This document shows, in pieces, positions 1,495 through 9,411 of a stretch of 32,207 nt of DNA. The notes beneath the pieces were generated by a model. It made no database searches. It was not told where the DNA came from and was given only the letters and a program-made list of their open reading frames with translations. The DNA is from Microcoleaceae cyanobacterium (lineage in GTDB: Bacteria > Cyanobacteriota > Cyanobacteriia > Cyanobacteriales > Microcoleaceae), in contig JBOFUV010000136.1 of the NCBI GenBank assembly GCA_051652765.1, positions 1-32,207 on the forward strand. The letters run 5' to 3'. The position numbers were made by a program, and so were the translations under genes. How positions within the stretch are numbered: the first letter of the stretch is position 1; each line of letters starts with the position of its first letter.

Positions 1495-3501
1495 TTATCG
1501 CAGCCACCAAATTAGGAGCGCGATCGCCAACCCTACCGCAAACCACAACCACGAGTTCTGCCACCATCTCTGTGCTTGGCGAGAAGAACGCGAAGCAGAA
1601 GTTTTTGCCCCGGTAGGCAAACTCTTGGCATACCAATCGTCATTGTTGTGTTTCTCAGTGCCAATACTCGGTGCCATGCGTCGTTGAGCCACAATGATTC
1701 GATTCCGTTCTGCAATGGCGGTTTTGCATTGTTCAACCCGGTGATCAAGCTTGAGCGCTTCGTAAATTGCCAAAGCCTGTTGAAAGCTCTGCAATGCCTC
1801 ATAATGCTGATCGAGCCGAGCCAGCGCATTGCCCATGTTGAATAACGAGTTCGCTTCACCGTCGCGATCGCCAATCTCGCGTTGAATCGCTAAGGACTGC
1901 TGATGGAACTCGATCGCCTTCTGGTATTGCCCTAAGAACTGGTAGGCATTCCCCAGACCGCCTAACGAATTAGCTTCACCTTGGCGTAGAGCAATGCTCG
2001 TGCCAAAGGCTTCGCCAATCTCGCGTCGAATCGCTAAGGACTGCTGATGGAACTCGATCGCCTTCTGGTATTGCCCTAAGGAACGGTATGCACTCCCCAG
2101 ATTGTTGCAAACAGCAGCGTAGGTTTGCTGTTGGTCTGGCGTGGGTTGCCAGTTGGTGTAGAGTTGGCTGAAAAGGTCAACCAGGGTCTGGGCATAGCCA
2201 CGTCGTCTTAAAAATTCCTCAAAGACAAATAAGGTGTCTGCGGCATTGATATAGCGCCCCAATTGGCACTGATGATAGAACGTTTCTTCATATTCAGCAA
2301 CAACCTCCCGGCTATCATCTGCGGCAACTTCAGTCCGACGATGGCTCCAGAAATAGTCGATCGCCCGTTCATGGGCTGTGGTCAGATCATTCGCCCTCTT
2401 TTGGACAAACTCTCGGATGCGGGGCTGAAGTTGAAACAGTCGTTGTCCCTCTTGATTCCGCTTTGGTAATTCTTGTAAGAGCGATCGCCGCTCTAAATCA
2501 TGCAAATCGGCATCGCTGATGGGTGGCTCTAGAACCAAAGCCGTTGCCAATTCGGCATCAAAAGCCCCACGCAAAATGCTCACCTGAGTTAAAAGATACT
2601 GCCGTGCGGATGTCAGGCGATCGACGCTCCACTGCAAAACCCTGTCCACACTGATGTTTGGCTCGCCCCGATGCTTTCCTTCCAGTTGAAATAAATCGGT
2701 GTGCTGGTTCAGGTGGCAAACCAGCCGTTGGGGTTGGCGATATTCATCCCGTAGCCAGCCTGCAATTAGGGATAGGGCGAGTGGGTTGCCCTGGACTTGT
2801 TCTGATACCGTGGCTCGATTTTCGATCGTGTCTGCCACCTCCAAGCTTTCCAGCAGTGCGGCTCCTTCAATTGGCTCTAAGCCCTGCTCCAACGTCAGCC
2901 AGCGAGATTGTCGCCAACCATGATACTTCTGAGGATATTCTCGCCCTGCCAACAGCAGCACGCTTTCGCTACCCAGGTTCTGAAAACGATCCAGGAACTC
3001 TTCGTAGCCTCCGCGCCAGTCCCCGGTTGCCGTCAGCACCGATTCCAGGTTGTCGATCGCCAGCAAATAGCGCCCCTGCTGCAATTGCCGTAACAGGCGG
3101 AGAATCAGATCCTTTTCTTCCAGCGATCGCACCTGCTCATGCAACACACCAAACTCTTGCAGCACTCGTTCTGCCAAAGTTGCGATAGACATGCCCGTTC
3201 GCACATCTGCCCAAAACTTACCTGCAAATCCCAAGCTCTCAGCAAACACTTTTGCCATCAACGTAGATTTGCCAATCCCACCCTCGCCCCGAATGCCAAT
3301 CATCAAGACGGCTGGATTGGCTAGCCAGGTGTTGAGTTTTGAGCGTTCATCACCCCGTCCTTGAAAAACCCGCAGGTCGGGCAAAGGGTCACTGTAGATC
3401 AGCGCTACTTTTTGAGCTTCATAAATGATGACGTTATTGGTCTGACCATAGACCGTCGCTAAATTCACCACCCCAACCTTGTTGGCGATCGGTTCTCTCA
3501 T
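1495..3501 (-). CDS. NLR-like STAND protein: N-terminal putative amyloid motif, NB-ARC, TPR repeats, C-terminal transmembrane helix
   Basis: Walker A GEGGIGKST, Walker B LLAIDNLE, GNPLAL (GLPL) motif, TPR repeats LGQYQKAIEFHQQSLAI, hydrophobic tail WLWFAVGLAIALLIWWLR. Confidence 0.9.
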   Translation of the reverse strand: MREPIANKVGVVNLATVYGQTNNVIIYEAQKVALIYSDPLPDLRVFQGRGDERSKLNTWLANPAVLMIGIRGEGGIGKSTLMAKVFAESLGFAGKFWADVRTGMSIATLAERVLQEFGVLHEQVRSLEEKDLILRLLRQLQQGRYLLAIDNLESVLTATGDWRGGYEEFLDRFQNLGSESVLLLAGREYPQKYHGWRQSRWLTLEQGLEPIEGAALLESLEVADTIENRATVSEQVQGNPLALSLIAGWLRDEYRQPQRLVCHLNQHTDLFQLEGKHRGEPNISVDRVLQWSVDRLTSARQYLLTQVSILRGAFDAELATALVLEPPISDADLHDLERRSLLQELPKRNQEGQRLFQLQPRIREFVQKRANDLTTAHERAIDYFWSHRRTEVAADDSREVVAEYEETFYHQCQLGRYINAADTLFVFEEFLRRRGYAQTLVDLFSQLYTNWQPTPDQQQTYAAVCNNLGSAYRSLGQYQKAIEFHQQSLAIRREIGEAFGTSIALRQGEANSLGGLGNAYQFLGQYQKAIEFHQQSLAIQREIGDRDGEANSLFNMGNALARLDQHYEALQSFQQALAIYEALKLDHRVEQCKTAIAERNRIIVAQRRMAPSIGTEKHNNDDWYAKSLPTGAKTSASRSSRQAQRWWQNSWLWFAVGLAIALLIWWLR
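1868..2101 (-). repeat. Two near-identical TPR-coding DNA repeats (1868-1957 and 2012-2101)
   Basis: 6 mismatches over 90 nt by manual alignment; offset 144 nt = 120-nt TPR unit + 24-nt insertion. Confidence 0.9.
1981..2018. repeat. Small dispersed repeat (SDR)-like 24-nt in-frame insertion at a HIP1 site
   Basis: Minus strand TTGGCG-AA-GCC TTT GGC-AC-GAGC ATT GCTC-TA-CGCCAA replaces TTGGCGATCGC seen in the sister repeat; adds 8 aa. Confidence 0.65.
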
Positions 3502-3510
3502 GGCTGAGGG

Positions 3511-3921
3511 CTAGAACGAGAAGGTATTCGTTTGATTGATAATTGTCCCCTGGTTCACCACGCCAATTTTTTCTGCCAGTTGGGTTAAATTAACGATAGC
3601 ACTGGGCTGCGCTTGAACGGCGGTTTGAACCTCCTGCACTGCCTGCCGAATTTCTGCATCTTCTTGGGCAATTGCCTCAACCTTGGCAACAAGAGCCGAT
3701 GTGCCGTAAATTTCTGGCTGCTGCTCTGCCAGTTCTGGTTGCTGCACTACGGTAGCAATGGCATCAGCCGTTTTGGGATCTTTACGCCGCAAAGCACCGA
3801 GGAACTTGGGTATCAAGCCTCCAACCGCTTCACCAATTTTCTCGCCCGTTTTCTCAAATGCTTTAGTCGCAATCATTGTCGCGATTGCTGTTGCCGTCAG
3901 GGTTGTTACAGGTTCCACCAT
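3511..3921 (-). CDS. Small helical putative cell-death effector (Bell/HeLo-like) with C-terminal putative amyloid motif
   Basis: Hydrophobic N-terminal helix MVEPVTTLTATAIATMIATKAFEKTGEKIGE, helical body, beta-prone N/Q/G tail matching the N-terminus of the NLR 9 bp downstream. Confidence 0.7.
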   Translation of the reverse strand: MVEPVTTLTATAIATMIATKAFEKTGEKIGEAVGGLIPKFLGALRRKDPKTADAIATVVQQPELAEQQPEIYGTSALVAKVEAIAQEDAEIRQAVQEVQTAVQAQPSAIVNLTQLAEKIGVVNQGTIINQTNTFSF

Positions 3922-4084: not shown

Positions 4085-4363
4085 ATGCAAATCACCATCG
4101 ATCTTCCTGAAGAGCTAATTCAGCACTTTAATCACGATCGCCTTGCCCGTGAGATCCTAGAAGCTCTGGTGATACAAGCCTACCAAACTGAGAAAATTAC
4201 CCATGCTGAAGTGGGTCGTATTCTGGAGCTACCTTCTCGTTGGGCAGTGGATGCCTTTTTGAAACAGCACAATGCTGATTTGCATTACGATGAGGTTGAT
4301 TTGGAGCGCGATCGCACCACCCTTCACCAACTACGAGCAAAGCCCACCCGTAGCCTTTTATGA
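4085..4363 (+). CDS. UPF0175 family antitoxin
   Basis: MQITIDLPEEL...EALVIQAYQTEKIT...VGRILEL...FLKQH...YDEVDLERD pattern; ATGA overlap with the PIN gene. Confidence 0.85.
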   Translation: MQITIDLPEELIQHFNHDRLAREILEALVIQAYQTEKITHAEVGRILELPSRWAVDAFLKQHNADLHYDEVDLERDRTTLHQLRAKPTRSLL

Positions 4364-4833
4364 TCGTCGTTGCTGATACCTCACCGATCAACTATCTACT
4401 GCTCATTAACCAGATTGATCTACTACCTCGTCTATTCCAGGAAATCATTATCCCTGACGTGGTTCGGGATGAAATGCTTGATCCAGATGCACCACCAGTT
4501 CTTCAGCGATGGATTACTAATCCACCCTCCTGGCTCACTGTTCAAACCGTTCCCGTAATCGATACAACCCTCAACACCCTTGATCCTGGAGAACAGGCAG
4601 CGATTACCCTGGCTCAAACCCTACCAGCAGATCTGCTGATTATCGATGAACGCTTGGGACGAAGGATTGCAAGCGATCGTGGTATTGCCATCATCGGCAC
4701 CCTGGGAATTTTAGATGATGCCTCAACTCAAGGTTTGATCAACCTTGCTGAAGCGATCGCACAATTGCAACAAACGAATTTTCGGGTTTCCCGTCGTATT
4801 ATTCAGGCATTGCTAAACAAACCAGAGAACTAA
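4360..4833 (+). CDS. DUF3368 PIN-domain toxin
   Basis: MIVVADTSPINYL, LDPGEQAAI, LLIIDERLGRRIA, IGTLGIL motifs. Confidence 0.9.
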   Translation: MIVVADTSPINYLLLINQIDLLPRLFQEIIIPDVVRDEMLDPDAPPVLQRWITNPPSWLTVQTVPVIDTTLNTLDPGEQAAITLAQTLPADLLIIDERLGRRIASDRGIAIIGTLGILDDASTQGLINLAEAIAQLQQTNFRVSRRIIQALLNKPEN

Positions 4834-5067: not shown

Positions 5068-8000
5068 ATGGTCTTTCTACCAGATAATTCAATTTTCGGA
5101 GACTCAAATGCTAACCTTCTGGTTGGCACAACCGCTCAAGATGCCATTTTTGGTTTGCAGGGCGCGGACAGTATTGTTGGGGGAGAGGGAATTGATGGCC
5201 TTTACGGCAATGCTGATGCAGATATTCTCTATGGGGCTCAAGCCGATGACTTCGGTTTTGGTGGTCAGGGCAATGATCTAATGTTCGGCGGTCAGGGCAA
5301 TGATCAGATCTCCGGCGACAGCGATAACGATACACTCTATGGGGACAAAGGGGCCGACATTCTCACGGGAGGGACTGAAGCCGATGTTTTTGTGATAGCT
5401 CCCGGAACAGGAGGGTTCAGTATTCCAGAGAGTGACTTAATTATTGACTTTACGGTTGGCGAGGACTTGATTCAACTCGCAGAAGGGTTAATCTTTACTG
5501 ATTTAGATATTCTGGCAAATGCAGGCAACACCGTCATTCAGGACAACACAACGGGTGAAATTTTTGTAGTTCTGCAAGGGGTTGACAGCGCAACGATCAC
5601 TGTAGACAGTTTCCTGCCAGTTACTAATCCACCCGAACCAGAGCCGCCCACAATCCCAGACTTTGAGCCTCCAGTCATTCAAGCTGCACTGGCAAACGAT
5701 ACCGGAGTGAGCGGAACGGACTTTGTTACCTCTGACCCCACAATCATTGGTGGTTTCAATGATAACGTTGGCATTGCTCGACTGGAAGCCAGTCTGGATG
5801 GGGAAACTTTCACCACGGTTTTCCCGACCTTCAACAGTTCAGGTAACTTTGTTCTGGGTCGAGGCGATCTGGAATTCATTCGGGGTAGTCAGTTAACCGA
5901 TGGCAGCTACGCGCTGCAACTGCGGGCGGTGGATACTTCTGAACAGGTTTCTGAAGTAATCACTGTTTCCTTTACTCTGGCTACTGACGCTCCCCAAATT
6001 ACGGCAGGATTGGCCAATGATACTGGGGACAGCAACACCGATGGTGTGACGACTGATGCCACCATTAACGGCACGATTCTGAGCACAGTGGGAATCGTGG
6101 AGTTGCGGGCAGGCTTTGCTGGGACTTTAACTGATATCTCGGATGAACTAGGAACCAATGGTCAGTTCAGCCTCAGTCGTCAAGATTTGGAGATTCTCCA
6201 AGGGGCCGCTTTAGTTGATAACACGGCCTACATCCTCCAACTGGAAGCTATGGATCAAGCGGGGTTGGTATCCACTGCCACCGTCAGCTTTACCTTTGAT
6301 GCGGTTTCCGGAGAACCCCCTGAGCCTCCTATTGTAGTTCCGGGACTGCCTGATCCTGAGGTAATTGAAGATGCCCCAGTTGAGGTGATTGAGATTGATT
6401 TGCCTGACATGGGAGATGGAAAAGAACGGGAAGTTACCGCAGATCCGGGTAACACCCTGGAGACAGCCCTGGATATTGCGGTTAGTTCCAATACGTTGAT
6501 CTATTCAGAACAAGTGAGTGCAACTGATCCAGAGGATCTGTATGTGTTCTCGGTGGGAGCTAGTAGCAACCTGATGCTCTCCCTAGGCGGCCTGAACCAT
6601 GACGCGGATCTGTTTCTTCTTGATAGTAATGGTACTGAGATTCAACGTTCTGAACGTTTAGGAATTTCTGATGAGTTCATCACCCAGCCGTTAACAGCCG
6701 GAACCTACTTCATCCAGGTGAAAGCTCTTGAGCCGGAAGTCACAGACTACAACCTGAATGTGACAGCAATTCCCCGCGATCCTGACATCTCTACCGGAGG
6801 TTCAGAGGAAGAGTTCGAGTTATTTACCGATGAATCTACAGCTTTAGTGGGTTTGGTTCCGGCTCCAGCCGACCCCAGTGGCACTGCTTTCCGCACTGAT
6901 CCTCGGTTTGCCGGGATTGATGGCAGCGGTTTTGCCACAGTGATCATTGATACTGGCATTGACCTGGATCATCCTTTTTTCGGGCCAGATGCGGATGGCA
7001 ATGGCATTGCCGACCGAATTGTCTATCAATACGACTTTGCTGACAATGATGCCGATGCCAGTGATGTTGATGGCCATGGGTCTAACGTTTCCAGTATTGT
7101 CGCCTCTGAAGATCCTGTCTTTACAGGAATGGCTCCCAGCGCCGATATTATCCACCTGAAGGTGTTCTCGGATGATCCTAGTGCAGGAGCGAGTTTTGGT
7201 GATATCGAAGAAGCCTTGCAATGGGTTGTTGAGAATGCTGAGACCTATAATATTGCCAGCGTTAACATGTCCCTGGGTGGAGGAAATCTCACGGAAGCAG
7301 TTTCTCCAGAAGTATTTGGGATTGGGGATGAACTAGCTGCCCTAACAGACAATAATGTCATCGTTGTCTCTGCCGCTGGGAACAGCTTCTTTGAGTTTGG
7401 CCCTGGGGTAAGTTACCCTGCTGCTGACCCGAACTCCCTGGCCGTTGGTGCCGTTTGGGATGGAGACAATGGTTCGTTTATTGCATGGGCTGATGGCGCA
7501 ATAGACTTCAGCACAGGGGAAGATCAGATTACCTCCTTCTCCCAACGTCATCCTGAATTGCTGGACATCTTTGCTCCGGGTGCATTCATTACGGGTGCAA
7601 ATCAAAACGGCGAAACTGTTGACCAGGGAGGAACCAGCCAAGCCTCTCCCCATATCGCCGGAATTGCAGTTCTGGCTCAGGAACTAGCAGTTCAGGAGTT
7701 GGGTCGCCGTCTCACTTTCGATGAATTCAATAGCTTGATTCAGGAATCGGGTGACACAATCTTCGATGGAGACGATGAAGATGACAACATAATTAATACT
7801 CAGACTGAGTATGAGCGCGTGAACGTTCTGGCCTTGGGAGAAGCGATTCTTGCTTTAAAAGGTACGCCTCCAGAAGAACCCCCAACTGAACCTTCTCTAG
7901 TTCGGTATGACTTTGCTTACCTCTACGACGGATTGAGTGTAAGCAGTGACTACTACTTTGGTTATACCTATGCTGAACCTGGTAGCTTTGACATTGGCAC

Positions 8001-9411
8001 ACTCTATGACGTTCAGCCCATGCCCAATGAAGCAGGGGAAAATGGGTTGTACTTTGTCTTTGGTGAAACTGCTGCTCCCGAAACGTCAAGATCAGGGGAG
8101 GTATTTGTGAGTGCCTATGCGGATGTGGATGCGAGTAACACCGCCTATACTCCTTATTTCTTCAGCTTTGGTTTGCCCTCTGGGTTTGACGGCATGGGTA
8201 GTGAGTTGGACTTCGTAGCAACAACGGATGAAACCACTGGAGCACCAATCTATGATGCCTTTGGCCTGGATTTCTTTGCTGCAGATGTTACAACAGAAAC
8301 TTTTACCAATACTCAATGGACACGGGCAGATTACTTTGTCAATCAACAACCCGGACTTATGGTAAACGGTGACCTGGATGCCGATGGGGACGAAGATTTA
8401 ATCGTGACCAACACCAGTGGGTTATTTAGTGGGTTCTCCAGCGGGTTCTCCCTGCTGTTCAATAGCGGGGATGGTTCTTTTGAAGCCCCAATTGACTTTG
8501 AAACAGACTTCTTCTCCTCCGGAGCCGGAGATGACCCTACTGTAGTCACTGCGGACTTTGATGGGGATGGGGTTTTAGATGTGGCCAATGCCGAAGCAGA
8601 TTCGGATCAAATCTTGCTGTATTTCGGTGATAGTAGCAAAAATTACAGTTTACCCGCCAGCGATCGCCCAATTCTAAGGGAAGCAGCCGATCTCGATGGG
8701 GATGGCAGCCCAGATTTATTGACCATCAACTCGATTGAGAGTGAGTTCGGTGTGGGTTACTTCGGGAATACAGTCTCCATTTACTATAACGATGGTGCGG
8801 GCAACTTTCCCCAGAAGTCCACAGTAACTGTTGAGGAAGGGGTACAGGATGTGACTGCTGCGGATCTGGACGGGGACGGAGATCTGGATCTGGCCACCGC
8901 TAACGAACGCACTGATACGGTTTCTGTCCTATTCAATCAAGGTAGTGGTACGTTCACTCAAGCAGTGGAAGTTGCCGTAGGCGATCGCCCTAATGACATT
9001 GTTGCCGACGATTTCGATGGGGATGGTAACCTGGATCTAGCAACTGCCAACTTTGGGGATGGCACCAGTTCAGTGCTGTTGAGTAATGGGGATGGGACGT
9101 TTGCGGCGGCGATCGCCCTTGACTCGGGCGCAAACCCCAGCACCCTGAGTGCGGCAGATCTGGATGGCGATGGCCAGCCTGACCTGATCATGCGAAACTC
9201 AGTGTTCTTTAATGATGGAAGTCGTCAGGGGAATCAGGTCACCCTCCTGCTGAATCAAGGGGATGGCAGCTTTGCTGCGCCGGAAAGCTTCACCGTTGGG
9301 GACATTCCGCAAGGGTTAGTGGTGGCTGACTTTGACAACAACGGTCAGTCAGACTTTGCCACCTCCAACTTTGACAGTCAGGATGTCACGGTTTATCTAC
9401 AATCGGCTTAA
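5068..9411 (+). CDS. Large extracellular S8 (subtilase) serine protease with RTX Ca-binding repeats, two Ig-like repeats, PPC domain and FG-GAP/VCBS repeats
   Basis: GGQGND nonapeptides; two LANDTG...TSDPTI/TTDATI repeats; catalytic triad IDTG (D628), HGSNV (H670), GTSQASP (S857); many DLDGDGDLDL repeats. Confidence 0.9.
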   Translation: MVFLPDNSIFGDSNANLLVGTTAQDAIFGLQGADSIVGGEGIDGLYGNADADILYGAQADDFGFGGQGNDLMFGGQGNDQISGDSDNDTLYGDKGADILTGGTEADVFVIAPGTGGFSIPESDLIIDFTVGEDLIQLAEGLIFTDLDILANAGNTVIQDNTTGEIFVVLQGVDSATITVDSFLPVTNPPEPEPPTIPDFEPPVIQAALANDTGVSGTDFVTSDPTIIGGFNDNVGIARLEASLDGETFTTVFPTFNSSGNFVLGRGDLEFIRGSQLTDGSYALQLRAVDTSEQVSEVITVSFTLATDAPQITAGLANDTGDSNTDGVTTDATINGTILSTVGIVELRAGFAGTLTDISDELGTNGQFSLSRQDLEILQGAALVDNTAYILQLEAMDQAGLVSTATVSFTFDAVSGEPPEPPIVVPGLPDPEVIEDAPVEVIEIDLPDMGDGKEREVTADPGNTLETALDIAVSSNTLIYSEQVSATDPEDLYVFSVGASSNLMLSLGGLNHDADLFLLDSNGTEIQRSERLGISDEFITQPLTAGTYFIQVKALEPEVTDYNLNVTAIPRDPDISTGGSEEEFELFTDESTALVGLVPAPADPSGTAFRTDPRFAGIDGSGFATVIIDTGIDLDHPFFGPDADGNGIADRIVYQYDFADNDADASDVDGHGSNVSSIVASEDPVFTGMAPSADIIHLKVFSDDPSAGASFGDIEEALQWVVENAETYNIASVNMSLGGGNLTEAVSPEVFGIGDELAALTDNNVIVVSAAGNSFFEFGPGVSYPAADPNSLAVGAVWDGDNGSFIAWADGAIDFSTGEDQITSFSQRHPELLDIFAPGAFITGANQNGETVDQGGTSQASPHIAGIAVLAQELAVQELGRRLTFDEFNSLIQESGDTIFDGDDEDDNIINTQTEYERVNVLALGEAILALKGTPPEEPPTEPSLVRYDFAYLYDGLSVSSDYYFGYTYAEPGSFDIGTLYDVQPMPNEAGENGLYFVFGETAAPETSRSGEVFVSAYADVDASNTAYTPYFFSFGLPSGFDGMGSELDFVATTDETTGAPIYDAFGLDFFAADVTTETFTNTQWTRADYFVNQQPGLMVNGDLDADGDEDLIVTNTSGLFSGFSSGFSLLFNSGDGSFEAPIDFETDFFSSGAGDDPTVVTADFDGDGVLDVANAEADSDQILLYFGDSSKNYSLPASDRPILREAADLDGDGSPDLLTINSIESEFGVGYFGNTVSIYYNDGAGNFPQKSTVTVEEGVQDVTAADLDGDGDLDLATANERTDTVSVLFNQGSGTFTQAVEVAVGDRPNDIVADDFDGDGNLDLATANFGDGTSSVLLSNGDGTFAAAIALDSGANPSTLSAADLDGDGQPDLIMRNSVFFNDGSRQGNQVTLLLNQGDGSFAAPESFTVGDIPQGLVVADFDNNGQSDFATSNFDSQDVTVYLQSA

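Follow-up and report, generated by a model that had tools for sequence, protein, structure and literature searches.

A cyanobacterial Bell/NLR gene pair with a shared BASS3-type motif, and relatives in which a conserved UGA-C junction may take the place of the receptor's motif

In the fungal HET-S/NWD2 system of Podospora anserina, signaling proceeds through the amyloid motif HRAM: templating driven by oligomerization of a NOD-like receptor (NLR) activates a membrane-attacking helical domain in its partner. Here we analyze a gene pair of comparable layout in a 32,207-nt stretch of DNA from a Microcoleaceae cyanobacterium (contig JBOFUV010000136.1 of assembly GCA_051652765.1; hereafter the window). 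As in HET-S/NWD2, a motif at the N terminus of an NLR adjoins an effector that carries the same motif at its C terminus. The two systems differ in that the fungal effector domain is HeLo and that of the window is Bell-like, in that the HET-s motif is a two-repeat β-solenoid whereas each protein of the window has one copy, and in that the fungal genes are eukaryotic while those of the window form an operon.

Closer relatives are bacterial. In their preprint, Dyrka et al. (2020, bioRxiv 10.1101/2020.01.06.895854) describe the Bell domain as a short protein unit of 120–140 aa that has five helices, the first of them hydrophobic, with an acidic residue at position 2 or 3, and they count 346 matching pairs, 91.3% of them collinear and 57% with open reading frames (ORFs) no more than 10 bp apart. 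The bacterial amyloid signaling sequence (BASS) motifs BASS1 and BASS3 behaved as prions in Podospora and formed fibrils in vitro, and motifs from the NLR side converted those from the Bell side (10.1101/2020.01.06.895854). Bell/NLR pairs of the BASS3 class, founded on ONI86675.1/ONI86674.1 from Saccharothrix, resemble the window pair in having a small helical effector whose N-terminal helix is hydrophobic, an NB-ARC-TPR gene that is collinear and lies a few bases downstream, and a motif of ∼20–25 aa common to both proteins; cyanobacterial hosts are also represented among them, and near-identical motifs occur in the authors' sequence file. Two differences are that the NLR of the window's clade has a conserved hydrophobic C-terminal segment, of which the accessible portion of the preprint makes no mention, and that the same portion names no member of the window's motif subtype among the motifs tested. 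A further system, Bab/Agp of E. coli ECOR25, is an abortive-infection system in which a Bell-related protein with a common motif relocates to the cell periphery and kills, as reported in the preprint of Ibarlosa et al. (2024, bioRxiv 10.1101/2024.11.07.622273). Like the window pair, it consists of a small helical protein that has an amyloid motif at its C terminus and, next to it, a partner that has the motif at its N terminus. Its motif is BASS11, and Bab is shorter (109 aa, compared with 136 aa); anti-phage cell death has been demonstrated there.

The pair lies on the minus strand as two collinear ORFs, the effector upstream (3921..3511) and the NLR downstream (3501..1495). The effector gene (3511..3921) encodes 136 aa followed by a TAG stop at 3513–3511, with a Bell-like helical domain over residues ∼1–105 and then an amyloid-type motif. 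Its C terminus reads ...LTQLAEKIGVVNQGTIINQTNTFSF before the TAG; a 9-nt spacer (CCC TCA GCC, 3502..3510) separates this stop from the ATG of the NLR, which starts MREPIANKVGVVNLATVYGQTN, and both ORFs share one frame. At an orthologous locus (L002) the identical PSA-M spacer follows a TAA. The effector-side motif, AEKIGVVNQGTIINQTN, spans residues 116–132 (3526..3576, minus strand) within a wider conserved block of residues 111–136 (3514–3591), and the NLR-side motif, ANKVGVVNLATVYGQTN, spans residues 6–22 (3436..3486, minus strand) and is kept in orthologous NLRs. Aligned without gaps, the two 17-mers are identical at 10 of 17 positions; N, Q, G, V, I and T make up 14/17 residues of one copy and 12/17 of the other, and neither contains proline. 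A sequence-only reading of the window had described the locus in these terms, as a small protein with a hydrophobic N-terminal helix and a helical body, lying 9 bp from an NB-ARC/TPR gene that has no other N-terminal effector domain, the two being linked by 17-residue segments that are 10/17 identical and rich in these six residues. Our ORF coordinates, sequence comparisons, Pfam searches and structural model agree with it on each of these points.

The likeness of the two motifs is real and not due to chance. Comparison of the last 35 residues of the effector with the first 35 of the NLR gave a BLOSUM62 local score of 55 over 18 aligned residues, a value reached by none of 20,000 shuffled NLR N termini (mean 20.6, SD 4.4, maximum 50). 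The best score among 1,774 35-residue pieces taken from the window's remaining open frames of 100 aa or more was 30, and that within the rest of the NLR was 21.

The motif also belongs to a class that has already been catalogued, since near-identical C termini are present in the authors' BASS3 cluster file (ucluster_03.input.fa, Supplement 1 of PMC8086366; the supplement's README equates C03 with BASS3, C07 with BASS5 and C12 with BASS7). That file, which also includes the Saccharothrix founder ONI86674.1 (PMC8086366), contains cyanobacterial C termini of the type ...LTQLAEKIGVVNQGQINNQTNNFSF; entries with the core LAEKIGVVN(Q/L)G...NQTN are A0A1Z4N7M3, A0A2Z6DJE0, A0A367QA32, A0A2T1E3J8 and A0A2W7B832. 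The window protein itself is not an entry of this file; the motif of its close homologues is. By this comparison the window motif is a cyanobacterial subtype within the BASS3 (RHIM-like) cluster and no new class. Its center reads G-V-V-N-Q-G in the Bell-side copy and G-V-V-N-L-A in the NLR-side copy, in place of the RHIM-like G-V-Q-V-G found in most entries of the file. The RHIM core is G-(V/I)-Q-(V/I)-G, a pattern visible in most BASS3 entries. What the window motif has in common with typical entries (...KGVQVGDHNTQTNTF) is confined to the flanks, a K-x-G-V start and an N-x-Q-T-N-x-F end.

The receptor gene (1495..3501, minus strand) encodes 668 aa from its ATG and consists of the motif, NB-ARC, TPR and a hydrophobic tail. 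Pfam places the NB-ARC nucleotide-binding oligomerization domain at residues 55–294 (2620..3339, minus strand; E = 1.3e-15), with the P-loop GIRGEGGIGKST, and tetratricopeptide (TPR) repeats, the presumed sensor, at residues ∼462–582 (1756..2118, minus strand; TPR_1, TPR_12 and related models, with E = 5e-26 for TPR_12). No Pfam domain was found between the motif and NB-ARC. The motif-bearing N terminus is kept in orthologues at five loci (L001, L002, L003, L006 and L036), and the codons at L001 and L002 show synonymous differences such as GGG/GGC, TTA/CTA/CTG and CAG/CAA. Since this N terminus is conserved as protein through synonymous changes, the NLR start at 3501 stands. At the other end of the protein, a hydrophobic segment (WLWFAVGLAIALLIWWL, residues 651–667; 1501..1551, minus strand) followed by a basic residue is kept at the very C terminus of the orthologues at L001, L002, L003 and L006, and is decayed at L004. 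The NLRs of this clade may thus be tail-anchored, membrane-bound receptors, with the segment as a possible anchor. Two Bell-HEAT fusion proteins (P0122 and P0123) have a similar hydrophobic C-terminal tail.

The effector is present as a single copy in its own genome and belongs to a sizeable family. We found 189 homologues of 74–238 aa at E ≤ 1e-3, nearly all of them cyanobacterial, and the family occurs in 132 of 401 genomes sampled within the same order; its neighbors in the ESM Atlas are cyanobacterial clusters annotated as hypothetical protein. An AlphaFold2 model built on a 32-row alignment is all-helical (mean pLDDT 66, pTM 0.55), with helices at residues 5–25, 31–47, 49–60, 74–87 and 89–103, hence about five before the motif, and with the motif region (118–136) drawn as a low-confidence helix at pLDDT below 50. 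The first helix (3847..3909, minus strand), delimited from the model by DSSP, consists of A, T, I, M, V and L residues and is preceded by Glu3. In the homologue alignment E3, P4, L8, T9, I13, A14 and a KAFEKTGEK block are invariant or nearly so, making the N-terminal Glu with its hydrophobic helix and this block the best-conserved part of the family; the helix is presumed to be the membrane-attacking end. The motif block is conserved in 22 of 25 aligned homologues, and the other three bear a different C-terminal motif on the same N-terminal domain, a pattern that implies modular exchange. A search of longer proteins scored no fused form of the window effector, a null result of little weight. 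A candidate link to HetE-N (PF20701), annotated on 20% of the members of one ESM Atlas cluster, was dropped, as that family gave no match at E ≤ 0.1 in the effector-family alignment among the 25 most-matched families listed.

The two copies of the motif vary together. Among 15 two-motif pairs, namely the window and 14 loci whose downstream NLR has an N-terminal motif, the NLR-side motif belonged to the class of its neighbor in every case (15/15). Three classes are represented, LAEKIGVVNQG...NQTN (BASS3-like), KLADKIG...GG...I.NQ and ENWKGINIKGG, the other two being BASS5 and BASS7. Own-pair scores ranged from 36 to 101 and between-class scores lay mostly between 15 and 34, with the scores covering all but five columns of the matrix; the highest between-class values, 40–49, came from comparisons between two classes that have an LAxKIG start in common.

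Taken with the published descriptions, these features make it likely that the pair is a Bell-domain/NLR amyloid-signaling pair with a BASS3-cluster motif and a templating mechanism of the kind proposed for that class. At 136 aa, with Glu3 and a hydrophobic helix at residues 5–25, the effector has the attributes of a Bell protein, its Bell homology resting on the presence of its relatives' C termini in the authors' Bell-side sets and not on a Bell hidden Markov model. BASS partners are NB-ARC or NACHT proteins with TPR or WD repeats, encoded within 5 kb, as a rule collinearly and no more than about 10 bp away, and the common motif of at least ∼15 residues stands at the effector C terminus and the NLR N terminus; here the NB-ARC-TPR gene is on the same strand at a distance of 9 nt and the motif occupies precisely those two termini. 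The match in layout to bacterial NLR/Bell BASS systems that the sequence-only reading had put forward is therefore supported by the small helical protein, its collinear NB-ARC-TPR neighbor and the common terminal motif, and the co-conservation on which that reading had staked its case is seen in the 15 class-matched pairs. The locus is accordingly a further cyanobacterial Bell/NLR pair in a published class, with a kind of motif that is already known, and it also displays a conserved hydrophobic tail on the NLR of this clade.

By analogy with the described systems, we infer a mechanism in which the TPR part of the NB-ARC-TPR sensor would meet a trigger and the NB-ARC domains would oligomerize, gathering the N-terminal motifs of the NLR into a cross-β nucleus. 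That nucleus could template the near-identical motif at the C terminus of the effector made from the same operon, and conversion would free the hydrophobic N-terminal helix of the effector to attack the membrane, so that the cell is killed or arrested. The cell would thereby undergo regulated death, as abortive infection or in some other form, and the pair may on this basis be a module for cell death or for defense against phages. The templating by amyloid, the attack on the membrane and the role in defense are all extrapolated from the published family.

Several observations weigh against this assignment. The effector has no family in Pfam, NCBIfam or PADLOC (weak helical matches to NET2A, DUF3035 and IcmG fell below cut-off), and for PADLOC this means that the defense catalogue has no model of the small protein. 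A sequence-profile search of the PDB with the effector returned designed coiled coils and similar helical noise only. Foldseek with the effector model, itself at pLDDT 66, found no PDB match at E ≤ 0.001 (best E 1.7), and VIA-align against 48,161 chains gave a best Z of 5.8, which is under the noise level stated for models of helical proteins, with no family of the HeLo, Hell or MLKL type listed. The motif, when set against the BASS3 file, is a divergent subtype in which the RHIM-like core has been replaced. We found no experiments in the literature on this motif subtype or in any cyanobacterium. Finally, the case for a defense-island setting is weak, because beyond flanking genes of the toxin-antitoxin kind the 32-kb contig is given over to housekeeping functions, among them serine hydroxymethyltransferase (SHMT), NDH-1 and CO2-uptake genes, and a sigma factor.

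Three other explanations were weighed, none of which we consider probable. The first, and the least unlikely, is that the shared motif is a homotypic docking tag that works without amyloid templating, for example a short β-strand or helix that recruits the effector one-to-one to an active NLR as adaptor domains do elsewhere. The low-confidence helix drawn by AlphaFold2 and the lack of fibril data for this subtype speak for such a tag, and class co-variation fits any homotypic interaction equally well; against it, the composition of the two copies is that of published amyloid motifs, and the motif type falls in a cluster with members that, according to the preprint, formed prions and fibrils. 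Also improbable is a scheme in which the small protein is an antitoxin-like regulator or chaperone of the NLR, and an unseen effector or the membrane tail of the NLR acts instead. The missing fold match to pore-forming domains and the conserved hydrophobic segment of the NLR itself would suit this scheme, whereas the Glu and hydrophobic-helix signature is the best-conserved part of the small protein, the literature ties that signature to membrane attack of the HeLo/Hell/Bell/MLKL type, and the Bell relative Bab moves to the cell periphery and kills. Very improbable is the proposal that the likeness is a neutral remnant of duplication at the locus or that the NLR starts downstream of the motif, the event that the sequence-only reading had named as fatal to it: the ATG at 3501 has no strong Shine-Dalgarno sequence in front of it and GTG codons lie within the motif, but the N terminus is conserved as protein with synonymous differences and the same pairing recurs in three unrelated motif classes.

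The Bell/NLR amyloid-signaling interpretation gains a further argument from relatives whose receptor lacks a motif. At 11 of the 19 genome loci examined first, the NLR ORF begins directly after the effector stop, in the same frame, without a motif and without an ATG before the P-loop. The junctions conform to the consensus TGA CTN ... TCG CCY GA. GGG AAC CGG GCA AAG (examples are L004:4409–4460, L008:4439–4490 and L013:4433–4484, with others among L021–L034 and L037–L064). A covariance model of the junction found 14 further sites in 10 of 151 phylum-sampled genomes (8 of 80 genera), and each of these is flanked by a small Bell-like ORF whose C terminus is of amyloid type and by an in-frame ORF of NLR type; the NLR-side frame is open to the end of the examined DNA at 12 of them (at least 515 aa) and cut or broken at two. 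A family search within the order added 29 loci, of which 10 are of the two-motif type, 16 of the TGA type and three unclear. Several motif classes are represented among the one-motif loci, and their receptors include NB-ARC as well as NACHT proteins.

Stop codon usage separates the two types. Our de-duplicated tally, made with a peptide pattern, covers 43 distinct junctions, which include kin and so are not independent; it misses some, such as L026–L032, L044, L051–L056 and L064, that fit the same split. All 23 one-motif junctions use TGA, followed by C in 22 and by A in one. The 14 two-motif junctions use TAA (9), TAG (4) and TGA (1), the single TGA being followed by T. On the receptor side of the one-motif junctions the first in-frame ATG is not reached until the P-loop or later in 21 of 30 cases, and only one of 30 has any ATG, GTG or TTG in its first 15 codons. 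Between the RNA element described below and the first canonical start, eight close, non-independent pairs of loci differ at 20, 7 and 30 sites in codon positions 1, 2 and 3, with 22 synonymous and 25 non-synonymous codon differences, as expected of translated sequence.

A database protein supplies a natural sense variant of the junction, as indirect evidence that a joined product may be made. P0121 (1,169 aa, named NB-ARC domain-containing protein in its source) is a continuous Bell-motif-NB-ARC fusion that reads ...RGSTFNI-W-LDTPERVRVKLNP... at residues ∼130–160, with Trp where relatives such as L011 have TGA and the same type of linker thereafter. A 139-aa piece of P0121 over the junction gave 22 spanning matches, defined as those starting at query residue 62 or earlier, and 18 of these have exactly one in-frame stop, which is always TGA. 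The four spanning matches without a stop were considered as TGA-to-sense variants and rejected: two lack the linker and join Bell directly to the NLR, and the remaining two are N termini of two-motif NLRs. L071 and L073 are direct Bell-NB-ARC fusions with neither stop nor linker element, a third wiring of all-in-one receptors. At L040 and L054 the in-frame extension after the TGA and hairpin is a 212–240-aa frame with a hydrophobic, membrane-like stretch and not an NLR, and the junction element may thus serve other partners too.

The window pair is tied to these loci by a close relative, L004. Its NLR is 77% identical to that of the window over 547 aa, starting just past the window's motif, and its effector is nearly identical over the first 75 residues, with a C-terminal half that bears a different motif followed by a TGA-C junction. 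The window itself ends its effector with TAG, gave no match to the junction model, and contains no such RNA element.

The junction has a conserved RNA structure. A 5-bp hairpin, GCCYG/CGGGC, starts 8 nt past the TGA; when 34 junctions are aligned by MAFFT without regard to structure, its pairing is 98.5% and two of four pairs show compensatory changes, compared with a pairing of 45–47% when the 3′ strand is slid by one position as a control. A possible outer helix of UGACU with AGUUA is 92.9% paired. The encoded peptide varies while the pairing stays (SPERERAK, SPDGNRAK, SSGRERTK and PSQGEDGTK), and the hexamer GGGAAC occurs in two different reading frames, so that the constraint must act at least partly on the RNA. 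A pseudoknot is also suggested, since the loop (GGGAA and variants) can pair with a downstream (U)UCCC to give a helix of at least 4 bp in 23 of 26 cases; the mean is 4.85 bp, compared with 3.58 bp for shuffled tails, as counted by a script because the loop register shifts by one base between subgroups. Pairing with swapped partners is almost as good (4.44 bp, against 4.83 bp for own partners), so that this second stem is no more than suggested. An Rfam search of five one-motif loci found no family at the TGA junction.

The same element can be recognized in a two-motif setting. In a BASS7 NLR at L049 (1969–2030) the linker ...NF-ISSERERVKSNPP follows the receptor's own motif directly, inside the coding region and with no stop, and the hairpin sequence TCG TCC GAA CGG GAA CGG GTA AAG is retained, recognizable at 30 bits. 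As two-motif NLRs bear the same linker after their own motif, the one-motif junction is the point at which the NLR motif would sit, and L049 hints that one wiring arose from the other.

On balance we think it probable that the TGA-C junctions are sites of programmed UGA readthrough, which would yield mostly free effector and a little effector-motif-NLR fusion. At the loci of the relatives the stop stands in a weak context, the ORF beyond it is in frame and has no start of its own, and an RNA structure past the stop is conserved; PMC5289835 documents UGA with a following C as a weak terminator in bacteria. The balance of the evidence likewise favors the view that the two-motif arrangement of the window is one of two interchangeable wirings, the other being a motif-less NLR that would acquire the effector motif by UGA-C readthrough aided by the hairpin, possibly as a pseudoknot. 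This second wiring occurs with BASS5, BASS7 and BASS9-like motifs at the least, and with receptors of the NB-ARC as well as the NACHT type.

Three alternatives to readthrough are opposed by comparative evidence rather than by experiment. Termination followed by re-initiation would not need the two ORFs to be in the same frame; it would produce a receptor that lacks a motif, and no start codon is available for it. A selenocysteine reading of the TGA is disfavored by the absence of SelB (TIGR00475) above cut-off in all five genomes with such loci, in a search that covered SelB and not tRNA-Sec or SelA and that detected SelB in 2 of 14 reference genomes as a control. Random pseudogenes would not have one stop codon, one context and one structure in common across genera.

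Readthrough of this kind has well-known viral counterparts. In murine leukemia virus (MLV) gag-pol, readthrough depends on a stop codon, an 8-nt spacer and a pseudoknot, and in phage Qβ a leaky UGA separates the coat protein from A1. The relatives' junctions, not that of the window, resemble both in that a leaky stop would separate an abundant short product from a rare extended one, and resemble MLV in having structured RNA about 8 nt past the stop. They differ in residing in chromosomal immune genes of bacteria, in the short 5-bp hairpin, and in a second stem that is only suggested. To our knowledge, programmed readthrough of cellular genes in bacteria is barely documented. We found no description of such a junction in the full-text literature, a search that did not extend to the journal version of Dyrka et al. 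or its Table S2, which may list these loci under other wording; in a search by term, neither the preprint nor PMC12261475 contained 'stop codon', 'in-frame' or 'TGA', and the preprint also lacked 'readthrough'.

The same effector and receptor families are linked through a motif present on both proteins or through a TGA-C stop with a hairpin, and this supports physical possession of the motif by the receptor as what matters. Relatives without an NLR-side motif seem to gain that of the effector through readthrough, and this lends support to the idea that the receptor must physically carry the effector motif. If readthrough does occur, these loci would constitute a natural experiment showing as much. 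A single gene would then give an abundant free executioner together with a rare executioner-motif-receptor fusion that nucleates it, comparable to Gag and Gag-Pol in retroviruses, and the junctions would represent a family, not described before, of signals for programmed readthrough in chromosomal genes of bacteria. A conserved, structured readthrough signal tied to immune genes should be of interest to the fields of recoding and bacterial immunity, and it can be tested with reporters.

Genes of other kinds surround the pair in the window. Couples resembling toxin-antitoxin systems lie on both sides, DUF433 with DUF5615/PIN_10 at 402–1075 on the minus strand and UPF0175 with a PIN-like DUF3368 at 4085–4833 on the plus strand, and a Uma2 endonuclease is also encoded nearby. 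Farther along, at 5068–9411 on the plus strand, a 1,447-aa protein combines RTX calcium-binding repeats, Ig-like domains, a PPC domain, an S8 subtilase and FG-GAP repeats, and is probably a large secreted or surface protease.

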